Notes under the pieces: generated by a model
What the model was told of the DNA's origin: nothing
What the model saw: only the letters and a program-made list of their open reading frames with translations
Database searches by the model: none
Made by a program: the position numbers and the translations under genes
Part shown: positions 7,679 to 12,089 of the stretch, in pieces
Position numbering within the stretch: the stretch's first letter is position 1
Layout of the letters: each line of letters begins with the position of its first letter
Origin: a virus
Virus record (IMG/VR): IMGVR_UViG_3300031760_000017
Strand: one strand, 5' to 3'
DNA: 64,000 nucleotides

Positions 7679-7695
7679 TGATTTTTCATTTACCT
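7672..7695. terminator. bidirectional hairpin shared by convergent genes
   Basis: Palindrome aggtaaatga-ttttt-catttacct overlaps the stops of the + strand gene at 7678 and the - strand recombinase at 7690. Confidence 0.5.
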
Positions 7696-8703
7696 TATAT
7701 ATTTTTGATGATCTTGTTTAACTTTTTCATTTGAAACATGTGCATAATGTAAAGTAGTTTCAAGCTAAGAATGTCCTAATACACTTTGAATAGATTCAAT
7801 TGGCATGCCTCTGTTTATCGCAGTTGTTGCCATAGTATATCTAAAACGATGTGGAATAATATCTTCAACACCGCTATTCTAAGTTAATTGATGCAATCTT
7901 TTTCTAACTCCTGAAGTACTTAATCTATTATAAGGGAATCTTAAAGACACAAAAAGAGCTTCATTATTATCTTTTCTTTCATTTATATAGTTTTTTATAC
8001 TAACTACAGTTTTTGCATCTATATAAACAGTTCTCCATTTTCCACCTTTTCCGCAAACAATAATTTCCCTCTTATTTAAATCAACATCTTTAATATTTAA
8101 ACCTACACATTCAGAAATTCTAATACCTGATGAAATTAGTAAATCTACAATAGCAATATCTCTATTTGTTTTACAAGCTCTTCTTATCTATTCTATATCT
8201 ATATCAGTGTACTATTGCCTTGGTTTTACATTAGACTTCTATCTTCTTATTCTTACTGAAGGATCTTTCTAAATATACTCTTCTTCATATAGCCATTTAA
8301 AAAAAGATCGTATAATACTTTTTCTTTGATTTAATGTTTCAGTACTTAATGGTTTACCAGTTTTTTTATTTTTAGATATATATTGAATATATAAACGAAG
8401 ATGATTAACAGTTATTTTTTCTAAAGGTAAACTTAAATAGTTTAACATATCCTATAAACACATTTTATATTGTTCTTTACTTTTTTCTGACATTCTACCC
8501 TATTGCTCTTTTGCCGCCATATAAATATAATAAGCTTCTGGTAATTGATAATTTTCATCTTTTAAATCTACAAAATTTGGTGTGATATTATAATTAAGAG
8601 AATAAGTATTTAATATATTTTTAATTTTATCTATATCCTATCTTTTAAAAAACGGCTATATTTTTAAACAAAATCCTTCAACAAAAGATAAGTTTGAAGA
8701 CAT
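7690..8703 (-). CDS. tyrosine recombinase / integrase (XerC/D-phage integrase family), 337 aa with 11 in-frame TAG
   Basis: Reading through TAG gives LISSGIRISECVGLNIKDVDL, GKGGKWRTVYI, and HRFRYTMATTAINRGMPIESIQSVLGHS[TAG]LETTLHYAHV (R...HxxR...Y catalytic signature). RBS GGAG upstream of the ATG at 8703. Confidence 0.85.
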
Positions 8704-8712
8704 TAATTAATT

Positions 8713-8770
8713 CTCCTTTTTTTTAATATTAAAAAAAGGAGGACTATATTTAAATATATAGTCCTCCTTT
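8713..8770. terminator. overlapping palindromes / bidirectional terminator
   Basis: tccttttttttt-aatatt-aaaaaaagga and aaaggaggactatattt-aaatatatagtcctccttt. Confidence 0.5.
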
Positions 8771-8912
8771 ACTCTTTATTTAATTTTATTTTAATTCCAT
8801 AAATAGATAACTTAAATAAAATACTATTTTATTTTTTATTTATTCACTATAATTTCATATCTTCTGTGCTTAATTAAAGTTTTTATTTAAGATCTCTAAA
8901 TGGGCGTTTAGT

Positions 8913-10181
8913 TTACTCACCTAAGATTGTGCCATCGACATACTCAAGACGTTTTACAACAAAATCACGTATCTGCAAAATGTTGTTGTCCGTCTTTCCG
9001 GGGATCGTAATAAAAGCCCCGTCTGCTGTTGTCTCTGCATAATCCTCGGCATAAAGATATGGCGGAATCTGGCTTATGAACTTGTCGAACTCTCCGAGAA
9101 TATTTCCGGCAGAAAGTACGGTTTCTCTAAGTTCCTGATACCTTGCTATTACATCGCTCTGGAAAAGATTCCAAATACGATAATGCAGGTAGTTGTCCTC
9201 TTGAAACTGCGTATATCCGTTATAATTCTCTTGGAAGATTGTGTTATAAGGACGCCATGTTACTTCTTCCTGTCGCACAAGTCCGGTCATTCCCCACGTA
9301 GAATCCAAATCGTACAAACCTGTGTACCACTGTTCTGCATCATACGTAAAAAATGTCTGATTCTTTGCGATCAGGTCAATGGCACATATAGCCCTTACGA
9401 ATATATGCATATCAATGAGCGATTGCAGGTCAATCTTTGAATCTATCCCGGCTATAAACTGCGCATCTGTTGAATTACATATAAACGCCAGTACGGAAGT
9501 CCAACTATCGGCAATGACTGTTGGCATTTCATCGTGAAGTTCATCAGACCATTTTCCATTCATTGTCGGCTGTCTGAAAAACATCGTGTTATCATCAGCA
9601 AGCCCATCTGTCTGAATAATGCAGTTTGTTTCCTCGTCAGAATCCACACCGTACATACCGTCTTTCGGTAAATTCCATGTATAAAGACCATAGTATACAC
9701 CGTTGTGGTAGACCTTGACCGGGAATCCATCAATCGCAAGATTGCTCTTTCTCAGCGTAGCAGGTAGGGATGCAAAATTACTCCTTGACCTGACTGCCTG
9801 TGACCAAAGACGGGCATTAACAATATTTCTTGCATGGCTGTGGTCTATCCAGTTTGCTTTAAGGACAAACTTATTTCTAGGTTTATCCCAATCTCTGAAA
9901 AGACGTTTGCTCTTTGATTTTCTTGCGCTGTCTGTAAAAAGATTTATCGTGTAATTTTTCTTTGGATAGTAGGCAGATGAATCTCCTTGTACTTTAGCTG
10001 TAGCGTAATCCGTGAATGATTCCGTTGCGCTCTTGTATGTTATCTTAATGTTGCTCTTGCCTTCTGTCTTTGTCGCATACAGTTCACCCTCGATGGACAC
10101 AACTGGAATATCACCGTCATTGGGTTCATATCCGCCTACGTTTACAATATTTCCATGATAATCATAAATATAAGCCATCAT
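8913..10181 (-). CDS. CotH-like domain protein (probable receptor-binding / tail-fibre-associated), 422 aa
   Basis: No TAG; about 45% GC versus about 30% for the flanks. KKNYTINLF...KANWIDHSHARNIVNARLW matches the CotH family core. Confidence 0.55.
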   Translation of the reverse strand: MMAYIYDYHGNIVNVGGYEPNDGDIPVVSIEGELYATKTEGKSNIKITYKSATESFTDYATAKVQGDSSAYYPKKNYTINLFTDSARKSKSKRLFRDWDKPRNKFVLKANWIDHSHARNIVNARLWSQAVRSRSNFASLPATLRKSNLAIDGFPVKVYHNGVYYGLYTWNLPKDGMYGVDSDEETNCIIQTDGLADDNTMFFRQPTMNGKWSDELHDEMPTVIADSWTSVLAFICNSTDAQFIAGIDSKIDLQSLIDMHIFVRAICAIDLIAKNQTFFTYDAEQWYTGLYDLDSTWGMTGLVRQEEVTWRPYNTIFQENYNGYTQFQEDNYLHYRIWNLFQSDVIARYQELRETVLSAGNILGEFDKFISQIPPYLYAEDYAETTADGAFITIPGKTDNNILQIRDFVVKRLEYVDGTILGE

Positions 10182-10189
10182 ATCACCCC

Positions 10190-11014
10190 TTAAACAGTAA
10201 TATTCGTTCCGACAAGTTCATTGATTTCCTGATTGGATAATGCAACTTTATAGATTTTATAGAAATCTATTGTGCCTGACCACGGTTTAACTGTGCCACT
10301 TTCAACTATGCCAATCTTATAATTACCTACAGCGTCAGCGGTACTCGTTATAATGTCCTCTAAAGAGTAAACAAGGTCATCATCAACATAACTATGTATC
10401 AATAAGTGCTTTGAAAAGTTTCTTACTACGATAATTATATCGTGCGCAACATCCATACTAAAAGGTGTAGAGTTACCTCCAAGGTTTTTAAATGTTGTCC
10501 GTGTCATAATTTGTTCATTAGATACGGTTGTTGCAATTCTCAAGCCTGTAACGACACTTCCATTTAATCTGGATTTTGCGCTTGCGTCCAGTAGGAATGA
10601 AGCCTCAGTGGTAGGCTCCCACGTCCCCTTTATCAGGATCGTAAAATCCTCGTTATCCATATCATTTCTTGCAGGTACTCCGGTATCGACTGTAAATGCA
10701 CTCATATCTGTTCCATACGGCAACTCATAAATAACCCGGCTGTCTACACTCATGCTGAACAATGCATCTTTCAGGGCTTTGCCGTACTTCTCACCGTCCT
10801 CGGTATCCCAATATACATGCTCAAAACAGTCTATAAGGGCTGTCTTTACATTATCCGGCATAATGCTATATGCGGGAATTACAAGACCGTCTGAGCCGAT
10901 AGCAAGCACCCTCCCGGCATTTATAGCTCCCTGCTGTTTGTCAACTTTCTGACCATTTGAAATAGCTTCAATAAGTGCGTCAACCTTTGCACCTTCCCAA
11001 ATATTAACTGCCAT
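10190..11014 (-). CDS. hypothetical tail-fibre-associated protein in the GC-rich cassette
   Basis: 274-aa ORF without TAG, same high-GC composition, tightly packed between the fibre and the CotH gene. Confidence 0.5.
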   Translation of the reverse strand: MAVNIWEGAKVDALIEAISNGQKVDKQQGAINAGRVLAIGSDGLVIPAYSIMPDNVKTALIDCFEHVYWDTEDGEKYGKALKDALFSMSVDSRVIYELPYGTDMSAFTVDTGVPARNDMDNEDFTILIKGTWEPTTEASFLLDASAKSRLNGSVVTGLRIATTVSNEQIMTRTTFKNLGGNSTPFSMDVAHDIIIVVRNFSKHLLIHSYVDDDLVYSLEDIITSTADAVGNYKIGIVESGTVKPWSGTIDFYKIYKVALSNQEINELVGTNITV

Positions 11015-12089
11015 TATACACCTCCGTTATATGTAACCGTTGTTTCGAGTGTTGTAAGATTGGTTACGATTGTCAGTGATTCTCCTGTGTTCAGCGTTCG
11101 GACTTCTGTTATTGTTCCAGTACCATAAGTAAAAGCGTCCGTTCTTATAGCTACCGAATTACGACTGTGAGTAACCTGAGAAACCTTCCCATCGGTGAAC
11201 GTATATGCCTGAGTTGTATCAGGAACATCATCACTAAGAAGCATTAACTTATGTGTTAAATCCCCGGTAGTGCTGACCCATGCATTCCATGTAGAAGTAA
11301 ATGCACTATATGTTCTAACCCATACTTCTATGCTTGTTCTTCCCGACTTGTAAGTATAGGTCAACCGCTGAAACGTCCTACCTACATTGTTTCCAAAAAC
11401 TTCATGCCAAACTTCCAAAATTCCATGCTCACTATCGGCAGTAGGTTTGTGAAGATATGAATTATCAGTGTGAAGCATATACACACCGGGAGTCAATACG
11501 GTATTCAAGTCCGTTCCGTCAGCAAGCCTTTGAGGTTCTGTTAATGCACCTAAATCAGCCTTTATTTCCGTAAACTCATCTCCAACAGCTTTCGCATCAG
11601 CTGCAGTTCCAGTTATAGAAAGCGTATCATCTACTTCAATTTGTTTAGCATCAATAGCAGCATTTACTTCGGCTTTCGTATAAGTATTTGATGCGTTTGC
11701 TTTCTTATTTAACTCTGTTTTAACTGCCAACGCATCTGCAGCGGCACCTTCAATAGTTAAAGTTTTATCAACAATAACCGCACTTCCTACAGGATTTACA
11801 TTATCATCTAACCAATCAGTAGTATCCGCACTAATTTGTTTTCTTAAAAAATCATTTAATCTTGAATTAAATTCATTAGTGCTAATTTTATCTCCATCCA
11901 ATTCATCAATCTGATGTTGGAGATTTCCTTTTCCAGAAGAAGAAATATCGACACTTCCTAAAGCATCTAATAAAGTATGATTATTTTCATCCCACTAAAC
12001 ATTTTGGACATTCACACTAATAGGAATTTCTCCAGTATAAGTGCCATTCTTTTGCTTTATTTTTATAGCCTTTATTTTATCAGCCATAA
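11014..12089 (-). CDS. chimeric tail fibre: AT-rich N-terminal about 65 aa (contains a TAG) fused to a GC-rich C-terminal domain
   Basis: ATG at 12087-12089 with RBS GGAGGAAG. The frame MADKIKAIKIKQKNGTYTGEIPISVNVQNV[TAG]WDENNH... runs continuously into the listed ORF (MDGDKISTNEF...). The GC shift falls near 11900. Repeats such as TGTAADAKAVGDEF and GAAADALAVKTEL are present. Confidence 0.7.

Follow-up and report, generated by a model that had tools for sequence, protein, structure and literature searches.

A foreign host-recognition cassette between two short conserved sites in a TAG-recoded phage, and the possible role of the adjoining tyrosine recombinase in its exchange

In a 64-kb window (the whole stretch of DNA analysed here) from a virus whose hosts are gut or rumen bacteria and in which the TAG stop is read as an amino acid, we find a host-recognition cassette that, as comparison of related contigs shows, is exchanged between phages as one unit; in the same alignments the swap boundaries fall at the same two short sites in two unrelated lineages. 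We consider recombinase-mediated cassette exchange at a host-recognition locus, with the pneumococcal tvr locus and the Rin shufflon as its nearest parallels, to be the best explanation, with a probability of about 0.5, and we infer that the tyrosine recombinase encoded at this locus catalyses the swap. The window (GC ~28%) belongs to a TAG-recoded phage, because its long open reading frames emerge solely under TAG read-through; one gene of 2888 codons holds 71 TAGs. In minus-strand order come the genes for the fibre, a LamG-like protein and CotH, then a hairpin and then the gene of an intact tyrosine recombinase (Table 1).

Table 1. Features of the host-recognition locus and its surroundings (positions in the window)
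Feature	Position	Strand	Sequence, evidence or remark
Bidirectional terminator-like hairpin between the convergent recombinase and 638-aa tail-protein genes	7667..7700	.	15 pairs, T-runs on both strands
Armless Xer-like tyrosine recombinase, 337 aa	7690..8703	-	PF00589 2.8e-37, plus SAM-like core-binding N-domain
Hairpin with T-run, 5' of the recombinase ribosome-binding site	8735..8770	-	15-pair stem, then TTTTTT
Terminal site	8894..8913	-	AACTAAA-CGCCCA-TTTAGAG, core CTAAACGCCCATTTAG at 8896-8911; cassette 3' boundary
CotH-family protein, 422 aa, final cassette gene	8913..10181	-	PF08757 5.9e-28, whole profile covered
Exchangeable host-recognition cassette (fibre C-terminus, LamG-like, CotH)	8914..11549	-	~2.6 kb; flank versus cassette identity, and composition
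LamG/concanavalin-like protein, 274 aa, middle cassette gene	10190..11014	-	weak Laminin_G_3 match (0.002), below cutoff
Tail-fibre / receptor-binding gene, 357 aa	11014..12087	-	'fibre' label inferred from position and homologues
Fibre, exchangeable GC-richer C-terminal part	11014-11549	-	GC3 step and homology break
Internal site, inside the fibre gene	11550..11565	-	ATAAA-GGCTGA-TTTAG, encodes IKADL; cassette 5' boundary
Fibre, constant AT-rich N-terminal part	11566-12087	-	1 TAG
ImmA/IrrE-like (M78) peptidase gene	12107-12424		near the recombinase locus

The CotH and LamG-like genes have GC contents of 41.4% and 40.6% and GC3 values of 0.41 and 0.36, respectively, compared with a GC3 of 0.12-0.17 in the adjoining phage genes, and neither contains a TAG. 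Over both genes TAG accounts for 0 of 21 Gln-type codons versus 32% in the late genes (P about 3e-4), CAG being preferred in the cassette and CAA and TAG in the phage. A sequence-only reading of this DNA had described 8913-11900 as a foreign, TAG-free block of ~45% GC; the two genes are indeed foreign and free of TAG, but their GC content is about 40-41% and the foreign part begins at fibre codon ~175-180 (~11547-11565), without reaching 11900. The fibre gene is chimeric, as had been proposed, but both GC3 (0.13-0.20 through codon 180, then 0.28-0.35) and homology place the junction at this position and not at codon ~65, and the start of the gene, given before as 12089, is corrected to the ATG at 12087 used by all homologues. 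The N-terminal module (residues 10-196 of the longer open reading frame) is 88-97% identical among proteins with different C-termini, while the last ~80 residues are common to about 60 proteins, some with BppU_N or CBM5_12 domains. The LamG-like counterparts in relatives give an identical weak Pfam match. CotH proteins of ~420 residues have 718 homologues. Three standard-code siphophage-like contexts were examined, and in each the CotH gene is last or nearly last in the tail module, before holin and lysin; CotH is thus common within such tail modules and not the oddity it had been taken for. No bacterial donor of the block was found, and the visible donor pool consists of other phages; the foreign composition and missing TAGs of the cassette are explained by a partner pool that includes higher-GC standard-code phages.

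A close relative of the window (L012) is 99% identical to it over 12426-11547 and 98.4% identical over 8917-4418, with no alignable DNA in between. Homology with another relative, L008, likewise picks up again at 8917, and L042 carries a third cassette within the same backbone; across the window, L012 and L042, the flanks are 96-100% identical and the cassettes 12-57%. A standard-code pair (L019 and L020) likewise has matching flanks and differing cassettes, and homology of L006 with both picks up again at the terminal site. At the internal boundary, L012 homology stops at 11547, and homology to the fibre C-terminus of L074, a standard-code phage contig of 47% GC, starts at 11564, precisely at the internal site: window positions 11564-11227 match L074 positions 4245-4582 with 80.8% DNA identity between unrelated flanks. 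Transfer of the cassette thus crosses genetic codes. The earlier suggestion that a conserved virion-proximal fibre N-terminus is joined to a horizontally acquired receptor-binding part is thus borne out, relatives with 98-99% identity on either side of the cassette holding unrelated ones.

The two sites are co-oriented and have similar arms, (A/C)TAAA ... TTTAG, around 6-nt centres that differ. Inverted or direct repeats had been anticipated at ~8900 and ~11900; none of the expected kind was found there, and the boundaries are marked instead by these sites of 16-20 nt. The terminal site takes in the final base of the CotH stop codon, and its 20-mer occurs once in the window against 0.01 copies expected by chance. 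About 20 IMG/VR contigs, together with many metagenome contigs, have its 17-mer 3' of their final tail or receptor-binding gene; the internal 14-15 nt, with identical codons, are found 1.4-3.9 kb upstream of the terminal site at 19 distinct loci, and the pair is shared by some 25 phage contigs, L074 among them, of which most are standard-code and of 43-53% GC. Among 15 IMG/VR contigs retrieved through the terminal motif alone, 11 have the internal 14-mer on the same strand 1.4-2.9 kb upstream, for which we calculate a chance co-occurrence of about 1.4e-5 per locus, though, with site and cassette moving jointly, the loci are not wholly independent observations. The centres are paired as GGCTGA with CGCCCA at 18 loci (plus one near variant) and as TGGATC with CGGGCA at five, with a single mixed locus. 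Where the internal site is lost, the peptide changes (EVRTDL, TKISLG).

These sites could also be conserved linkers at module borders, or serve there as an operator or mRNA element, with swaps effected by homologous recombination, in which general or phage-encoded machinery would use the sites and the conserved fibre N-terminus, and with the recombinase an unrelated accessory such as a Cre/Xer-like multimer resolvase or a moron at a permissive junction. We regard this as a possible, tentative alternative. The conserved arms span just 5-7 bp, and the window has 7 matches to the arms alone, no enrichment over the 4.4 expected; conserved arms around a variable centre would fit the operator of a dimeric regulator as well. 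In the available DNA the family recombinase was not found in about half of the both-site phages, and none was seen within 7-11 kb downstream in L070, L079 and L069. A recombinase-less sister clade has at least three or four cassette types, which implies exchange without a recombinase gene in cis, and the left breakpoints relative to that clade lie at a repeated coding segment, AAADA(K/L)AV (11731), off the internal site. The orthologous gene of standard-code phages comes, as a moron would, with a structured leader and an extended -10 promoter-like sequence of its own (TGNTATAAT). On the other hand, homologous recombination over 15-20 nt is inefficient, and the islands of 14-17 nt, identical between unrelated flanks and with fixed synonymous codons (AAG GCT GAT TTA in the internal site) across genomes of 28-53% GC, need direct selection on DNA. 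In the clade with the recombinase deleted, moreover, a 5' remnant of the gene is kept and both sites have eroded.

The recombinase gene is preceded, at a distance of 96-772 nt, by a site of this design at 18 of the 28 distinct family loci for which enough upstream DNA is available; the other ten have no recognisable site within 750 nt, which favours homologous recombination and counts against recombinase-mediated exchange. No circle, cointegrate or other recombination product was seen. A sister recombinase family (27-32% identity) also comes after the same motif. The next-closest recombinases (43% identity over 276 residues) are found in Type I R-M loci where hsdS genes lie in direct orientation and in arrangements that vary between contigs; the repeats amid which they sit, ATAAA-TAGGAA-TTTAGAG mid-gene and GATAAATTTTTATTT at the 3' end, have the same arms as the phage sites, which again speaks against an unrelated accessory.

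The recombinase is complete and written in the recoded dialect of the phage, as first read: apart from the Pfam match, all catalytic residues are there (R195, K219/222, H285, R288, H311, Y320; invariant in the alignment), and its frame holds 10 sense TAGs, at the same positions in L012, and no TAA or TGA. It scores 215 bits against NCBIfam XerA_Arch (cutoff 220). The palindromic terminators noted beside it were also confirmed as hairpins with T-runs; that between the convergent genes was also detected in an inverted-repeat search of the window, and the upstream one is retained in L001, L008 and L010 with both arms changed (GGAGGA/TCCTCC to CGAGGA/TCCTCG). No sigma-70-like promoter was found on the minus strand between the upstream hairpin and the recombinase ATG. 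This hairpin probably ends the cassette transcript and, by analogy with tvrR, may attenuate read-through into the recombinase gene.

One of two roles proposed earlier for the gene, that of a lysogeny integrase with attP in 8704-8912, now appears unlikely. It is the sole tyrosine recombinase of the window; the terminal site, within or at the edge of that interval, is a palindromic core-type sequence ~190 nt upstream of the gene, where an attP core might be sought since attP usually adjoins int; the ImmA/IrrE-like peptidase gene is nearby; and the gene is dispensable, as its deletion in the sister clade attests. However, its TAG density (2.96 per 100 codons) is exceeded in the window only by that of a RuvC-like gene, and these in-frame TAGs make it untranslatable on entry into a standard-code cell; the integrases of recoded temperate phages avoid TAG codons (Borges et al.). 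Its orthologues are located 3' of receptor-binding genes, between tail and lysis genes, in phages that encode a canonical integrase beside a repressor module elsewhere. The arm-binding domain is absent, the replication genes (topoisomerase II, ligase, DnaB and Dda helicases) form a set typical for large virulent phages, and the terminal site is bordered by phage DNA on both sides, never bacterial, in about 45 contigs. Searches with two peptide patterns found no close recombinase homologue in 185,579 species-representative genomes, and neither integrated copies nor a phage-bacterium junction came to light.

The other proposed role, exchange or inversion of a host-range cassette in the manner of a shufflon, has to be divided. 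Exchange has real but indirect support, although it would be an intergenomic event at two site types and no shufflon. Inversion of the cassette, or intragenomic shuffling of alternative C-terminal segments as in Rin, R64 and the Mu G-segment, is highly improbable and effectively excluded: the recombinase does come right after the variable receptor-binding end, like rci after pilV and rin after the Rv genes, but there are no significant inverted repeats around or inside the block, the sites share one orientation, no silent, oppositely oriented fibre segments are present, and the cassette has the same orientation in all relatives fetched (L001, L008, L010, L011, L012, L042, L119). Serine invertases (Gin of Mu, Cin of P1, Min of p15B) also lie beside variable tail-fibre C-termini and change host range, but they belong to another enzyme family and act by intragenomic inversion between inverted sites with an enhancer and Fis.

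Among dimer resolvases, XerC, XerD and XerA share with the phage enzyme a two-domain build lacking an arm-binding domain and a palindromic site with a 6-nt centre, and XerA, XerC and XerD are its best database matches. It nevertheless falls below every Xer equivalog cutoff, has an additional ~60-residue N-terminus and is phage-borne and tail-gene-linked, and the conserved arms of the phage sites are far shorter than the 11-bp dif arms. The pdif modules of Acinetobacter plasmids are likewise discrete gene blocks between Xer-type sites. In engineered recombinase-mediated cassette exchange with heterospecific lox or FRT sites, similar arms with different centres surround a cassette and like sites recombine only with like, so that the cassette is exchanged and not deleted; this is a laboratory design, and we know of no natural phage counterpart.

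In Bifidobacterium prophages the armless recombinase Rin lies beside variable receptor-binding C-termini, with one site intragenic and one right past the 3' end, and the prophages also have a canonical integrase gene elsewhere (Mavrich et al. 2018, PMC6109161). The present enzyme is similarly a phage-encoded, armless, XerD-like tyrosine recombinase flanking a variable receptor-binding C-terminus, with an intragenic site and a site directly 3' of the gene, and the standard-code phages bearing orthologues have their canonical integrase elsewhere. Rin, however, acts by inversion on several silent Rv segments through inverted 11-bp rix sites, whereas neither silent segments nor inverted sites are present here and no inversion was seen, and the site sequences are unrelated (TTCCCTAACCC in Rin, CTAAA-N6-TTTAG here). 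TvrR reshuffles hsdS halves, excising and reintegrating them at direct repeats of two kinds that have a core in common, and a hairpin attenuator precedes its gene (Kwun et al. 2018, PMC6265443). The phage locus resembles this pneumococcal SpnIV Type I R-M system in having a tyrosine recombinase beside specificity-determining gene halves, two kinds of short co-oriented repeat with a common core, mid-gene and at the tail end of the gene, and a terminator-like hairpin directly upstream of the recombinase gene; the hsdS-locus enzymes described above, the nearest non-phage relatives of the family, occupy loci of tvr design. The cargo differs, being receptor-binding genes in place of hsdS, and a tvr locus has several alternative cassettes that are shuffled via excised circles bearing the recombinase gene, whereas in the phage a single cassette, with a single site of either kind, leaves room only for intergenomic exchange.

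Under recombinase-mediated cassette exchange, crossover would take place solely between same-type sites of two co-resident phage or prophage genomes. A first crossover would fuse the two genomes, and a second, at the other site type, would resolve them with their cassettes exchanged, while the unlike centres would bar crossover between the two sites within a genome and so prevent deletion of the cassette. With its TAG codons and the hairpin upstream, the recombinase would be made only at a low level late in infection. A foreign, exchangeable host-recognition block set between two short conserved sites beside a recombinase gene suggests that phages trade host range via fixed docking sites.

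Same-lineage recoded contigs were reached through homologues of the fibre, and their comparison with the window reveals that the host-recognition genes are replaced as a block. Identity between the viral contig L012 and the window is 99% over 12426-11547 and 98.4% over 8917-4418; in L012, a fibre-esterase fusion and a gene of 213 aa occupy the interval between these matching flanks. A third cassette is found in L042, which has the backbone of the window and L012, and a different one again, GC-richer and TAG-free, in L119, an 80% relative whose recombinase has 8 TAGs. The sister clade (L001-3 and L008-11; backbone identity 92-98%) has cassettes of CotH or esterase type and no recombinase; it keeps the ribosome-binding site and the first ~12 codons of the recombinase gene, with the ATG mutated, and the gene was therefore ancestral and then deleted. 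Flanks of 94-100% identity around cassettes of 7-57% identity are seen in phage pairs of the recoded as well as of the standard-code lineage, and further pairs have the upstream flank alone or the downstream flank alone in common. Each cassette is swapped as a whole, two conserved, paired sites forming its borders, and the exchange spans phage lineages and genetic codes.

Features of the cassette locus in the window
Feature	Coordinates	Strand	Remark
Fibre gene	11014-12087	-	ATG at 12087 is the start in all homologues
Internal site	11550-11565		inside the fibre gene
LamG-like gene	10190-11014	-	
CotH gene	8913-10181	-	
Terminal site	8894-8913		core 8896-8911; overlaps the CotH stop codon
15-pair hairpin and T-run	8735-8770	-	
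Tyrosine recombinase gene	7690-8703	-	
Second hairpin	7667-7700		common to the recombinase gene and a convergent 638-aa tail-protein gene

The cassette is compositionally foreign. Its GC content is 40-41%, in a window of ~28% GC overall, and its GC3 is 0.36-0.41 against 0.12-0.17 in the adjoining genes; Gln is encoded mainly by CAG, and TAG accounts for 0 of 21 Gln-type codons (P about 3e-4). The sequence-only reading had placed a compositional junction inside the fibre gene, and a step in GC3 bears this out, at codon ~175-180 (0.13-0.20 before, 0.28-0.35 after) instead of ~65 codons into the gene. The repeats that it expected to flank the cassette at ~8900 and ~11900 did not materialize, the search giving AT-rich matches at chance level only. 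GenBank phages contain no relative of the locus region or of 22 kb of the backbone, identical-protein look-ups for the CotH and fibre open reading frames returned no record, and Rfam recognized no known RNA in the region.

Every replacement is bounded on its 3' side by the terminal site, AACTAAA-CGCCCA-TTTAGAG, and the 5' limit relative to L012 falls just past the internal site, ATAAA-GGCTGA-TTTAG. The terminal site occurs once in the window (0.01 expected), and its 17-mer comes after the final tail gene of unrelated standard-code phages (L006, L019, L020, L031, L038, L068, L081 and others); it is present in 20 IMG/VR contigs, in which the sequence on either side is unrelated from contig to contig. 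Variants of the terminal site alter the centre (CGGGCA, CACCTG, CTGAAA), and a TTAAA-GGACAC-TTTAA form also occurs. In 19 distinct loci, the terminal site is preceded at 1.4-3.9 kb, on the same strand, by the internal 14-15-mer with codons AAG GCT GAT TTA unchanged, and 11 of the 15 IMG/VR contigs found by the terminal motif alone, and with enough upstream DNA, have this 14-15-mer; by our own arithmetic, such co-occurrence would arise by chance at about 1.4e-5 per locus. Pairing is matched: internal GGCTGA is partnered by terminal CGCCCA in 18 loci (plus one near variant) and internal TGGATC with terminal CGGGCA in five, with one locus mixed. In the recombinase-less clade the sites are eroded, L001 having one mismatch in the internal and four in the terminal site, L008 having lost the internal site (peptide EVRTDL) with one mismatch in the terminal one, and L010 having lost both. 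The two sites are shown to be constrained at the nucleotide level. The significance of the sites rests on their full length and their recurrence elsewhere and not on the arms alone, the arm-only pattern HTAAA-N6-TTTAG not being enriched in the window. A BLAST search of GenBank phages with the terminal motif gave chance coding matches only, in FelixO1-like phages, and an IMG/VR scan with the 15-nt internal site gave about as many hits as expected by chance. A partial second terminal motif at 4876-4899, within a 639-aa gene, was rejected as coding sequence that is absent at the homologous position of L119.

The sole mixed pairing seen is that of L119, where an internal site of the GGCTGA type is accompanied by tandem terminal-type sites 10 nt apart (L119:1821-1870), TTAAA-GGACAC-TTTAA and then CTAAA-CGGGCA-TTTAG. 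The exact terminal 17-mer has a different setting in the IMG/VR contigs L067 and L082: it separates two minus-strand genes beside a gene for a C5 DNA methyltransferase, and a tyrosine recombinase of the wider family (349 aa, 30% identity) is encoded about 2 kb away.

The tyrosine recombinase that had been called complete has every catalytic residue, 10 TAGs in its 337 codons and no TAA or TGA. It belongs to the tyrosine recombinase superfamily (PF00589, 128.6 bits against a cutoff of 27.1), and R195, K219/222, H285, R288, H311 and Y320 are invariant among the aligned orthologues and align with a XerC-like structure. Its best profile matches are XerA, XerC and XerD, each short of the equivalog cutoff (XerA_Arch 215 versus 220, XerC 174 versus 335, XerD 151 versus 330); judged by these scores it is Xer-like, yet not a member of XerC, XerD or XerA. 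It also falls short of the integron integrase model TIGR02249 (77 bits, cutoff 265). The family comprises about 95 clusters at 45-96% identity, nearly all metagenomic, and about 20 standard-code contigs (41-53% GC) have an orthologue at 56-68% identity. The standard-code orthologue always lies between the last receptor-binding gene and the holin/lysin, on the strand of the receptor-binding genes. A few kb farther downstream, on the opposite strand, the orthologue-bearing contigs encode a separate integrase of 369-381 aa, which a repressor gene adjoins in L120, the context with Pfam annotation.

The coexistence of canonical integrases with the orthologues argues against the recombinase being a lysogeny integrase, for which the sequence-only reading had proposed an attP in 8704-8912. 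The TAG load points the same way, as the integrases of recoded temperate phages are free of recoded stops according to the criterion of Borges et al. No arm-binding domain of the lambda type was detected, Pfam giving SAM-like core-binding and catalytic domains only and the first ~60 residues being without a match. Phage DNA lies on both sides of the site in all metagenome and viral contigs, with no bacterial junction; a scan of species-representative genomes with the recombinase alignment, of limited sensitivity, gave relatives of 27-35% identity only, with no close homologue and no prophage. We consider this role improbable.

Of the 28 distinct family loci with enough upstream DNA, 18 have a site with this architecture 96-772 nt ahead of the gene, and in the window the gene is about 190 nt downstream of the terminal site; a sister family (27-32% identity) comes after the same motif. 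The next relatives, typified by P0335 (43% identity over 276 residues), reside in Type I restriction loci, where the hsdS genes, two or three in number and directly oriented, vary in order between contigs. The repeats of these loci, ATAAA-TAGGAA-TTTAGAG mid-gene and GATAAATTTTTATTT at the 3' end, have the same arms as the phage sites. Three such restriction-modification loci, on contigs of 51-220 kb (L122, L123 and L124), encode the same recombinase protein, with hsdS genes and a 162-aa gene differently ordered but all in direct orientation, an arrangement consistent with shuffling by excision and reintegration; ParA/ParB genes, a SymE toxin gene and phage-like genes are nearby. Two other possibilities were rejected: that the recombinase gene is itself a small element inserted at the motif, since no second hybrid site was found downstream of it, and that silent fibre segments are represented by the small minus-strand open reading frames upstream of orthologous recombinases.

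Two known systems resemble this locus. The pneumococcal tvr locus has a tyrosine recombinase, TvrR, and two kinds of direct repeat (mid-point and tail-end) with a shared core; hsdS halves are shuffled through excision and reintegration by way of circular intermediates, and tvrR expression is limited by a hairpin attenuator (PMC6265443). The window likewise has a recombinase next to specificity genes and two kinds of repeat in the same orientation, mid-gene and tail-end, with a shared core and similar arms, but where tvr has several alternative cassettes per locus, the window has a single cassette and a single site of each kind. In the Rin shufflon of Bifidobacterium prophages, an armless XerD-like recombinase adjoins variable receptor-binding C-termini, with one site in the gene and one right past its end and the canonical integrase separate, and acts by inversion among silent segments (PMC6109161). 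The window locus has the same enzyme type and two-site layout; however, the inverted crossover sites, silent opposite C-terminal segments and inversions of Rin and the R64 shufflon were not found in the window or its relatives. Inversion of the cassette by the recombinase, the shufflon-like role that had been suggested from the sequence, is contradicted by the common orientation of the two sites and of the cassette in every relative, and is very improbable.

We give a rough probability of 0.45 to a natural recombinase-mediated cassette exchange in which the sites fall into at least two compatibility types and swaps between co-resident genomes are carried out by a dedicated tyrosine recombinase, present in a subset of these phages, that is TvrR-like as measured through the P0335-type recombinases of comparable hsdS loci. 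The recombinase would cross over like sites on two co-resident genomes, crossover at one site type fusing the genomes and crossover at the other resolving them, and we give this mechanism as a whole about an even chance. The differing site centres would stop self-deletion of the cassette, and the TAG codons and the upstream hairpin may hold down recombinase synthesis. The main alternative is that the sites serve another purpose or are mere linkers for homologous recombination, the recombinase being unconnected with the swap. In its favor, about half of the site-bearing phages have no recombinase gene in the DNA available, several cassette types persist in the recombinase-less clade, 10 of the 28 family loci have no recognisable site, and the conserved arms are short; we regard it as somewhat unlikely.

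Further features attend the recombinase gene. Its 10 TAGs are mostly opposite Glu or Asp in the three standard-code orthologues of L004-L006, with Gln once only, and its Gln codons are 10 CAA and no CAG; the alignment bears on the possible meaning of TAG here or on the origin of TAG codons (for example, GAG to TAG). A conserved leader of ~150 nt, absent from the window, precedes the orthologues of standard-code phages (L006:9412-9576, L019:9836-10000, L027/L028, L004, L005, L036 and others). It is made up of an extended -10 promoter-like sequence, TGNTATAAT, an A-rich stretch and two hairpins. The first hairpin is long, three of its base pairs covary and its loop, CGCCAAAGAAC, is conserved; the second sequesters the ribosome-binding site and has an alternative pairing with an upstream segment open to it. 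The leader has no Rfam match and may be an undescribed regulatory leader of the recombinase. In some standard-code phages, a protein of 79-83 aa, ribbon-helix-helix-like by eye, is encoded on the opposite strand just upstream of the leader, between the terminal site and the recombinase (L016:53-304 and L027/L028:9482-9721, minus strand), and by analogy with tvrA/tvrT it could be a regulator.

The fibre is a mosaic by its sequence matches: its N-terminal module is joined to other C-termini elsewhere, at 88-97% identity, and its last ~80 residues are common to about 60 proteins, some with siphophage BppU_N baseplate or carbohydrate-binding domains. Window positions 11564-11227 are 80.8% identical to a receptor-binding gene of L074, a standard-code contig of 47% GC; the match starts precisely at the internal site, and the sequences flanking it are unrelated. 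The visible donor pool is other phages rather than bacterial chromosomes. The CotH protein belongs to PF08757 (98.7 bits, cutoff 23.8; the match covers positions 2-322 of a 322-position profile), and CotH proteins of ~420 aa make up a large family (718 homologues). The gene order in the three standard-code contexts inspected is tape measure, Dit/Tal, fibre or LamG-like and CotH, sometimes with one or two small genes between CotH and holin/lysin, and one of the three has an integrase and repressor module. CotH, thought unusual in phage tails when the sequence was first read, is therefore ordinary in such tail modules.

The fibre gene is immediately preceded, on its own strand, by a truncated ImmA/IrrE-type gene (M78, HEITH motif; 105 aa, 12107-12424, minus strand), 96% conserved among relatives. 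Just upstream of the M78-like gene, at window ~12466, the sister clade (L001:7205-9618; also L008, L010 and L011) has an extra 2.4-kb block of five genes (160, 78, 258, 151 and 193 aa; 35-40% GC) that is absent from the window. A RuvC-like resolvase gene (12811-13299, plus strand) has the top TAG density of the window, 7 in 163 codons; adjoining it in L001, L010 and L011 is a 245-aa gene, absent from the window, with a weak GIY-YIG match in L010 and L011.

Long reading frames in the window are seen only with TAG as sense, and we treated it so, taking it as probably Gln. Judging from the names of the records, the samples are probably of rumen or gut origin. Long conserved frames, mostly of structural and lysis genes, are broken only by TAG, as in a TAG-recoded phage; the tape-measure-like gene has 71 TAGs in 2888 codons and another gene 26 in 1563. 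TAG is absent from replication genes (topoisomerase II, NAD ligase, DnaB-like and Dda-like helicases, RNA ligase) and reaches 1.3-4.3 per 100 codons in tail, lysis, RuvC-like and recombinase genes, a distribution that matches the pattern of Borges et al., in which recoded codons mark late genes. The four tRNA genes of the window (Gln-TTG, Gly-TCC, Arg-TCT and Cys-GCA, at 396-1395) include no suppressor tRNA. They are followed by a 507-aa DUF2828/DUF7788 vWA-like gene (1491-3014; 40% GC, GC3 0.33, no TAG, Gln by CAG only) with 98-99% protein identity in relatives, and this gene, within the region 1-3014, is a second block of distinct composition. TAG-poor genes at 30741-33263, 33779-35017 and 52216-53238 use CAG for 26 of 27, 9 of 9 and 6 of 7 Gln codons, unlike the late genes, in which CAA and TAG are used; the genome seems to have two codon dialects, over and above TAG.

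No trait limits phage ecology and phage therapy more than host range does, and the swapping of tail-fibre modules is usually attributed to chance homologous recombination. Here the two nucleotide-level marks that bound the swapped block are the same across unrelated phages and come in matched pairs, and the recombinase beside them belongs to a family close to those of restriction-specificity loci. If the recombinase acts on these sites, phages would possess a dedicated, portable system for trading host-recognition genes that bridges standard-code and TAG-recoded genomes. Such a system would explain the sharp mosaic borders, offer ready-made sites and an enzyme for host-range engineering, and provide a route by which a recoded phage goes on importing standard-code genes.
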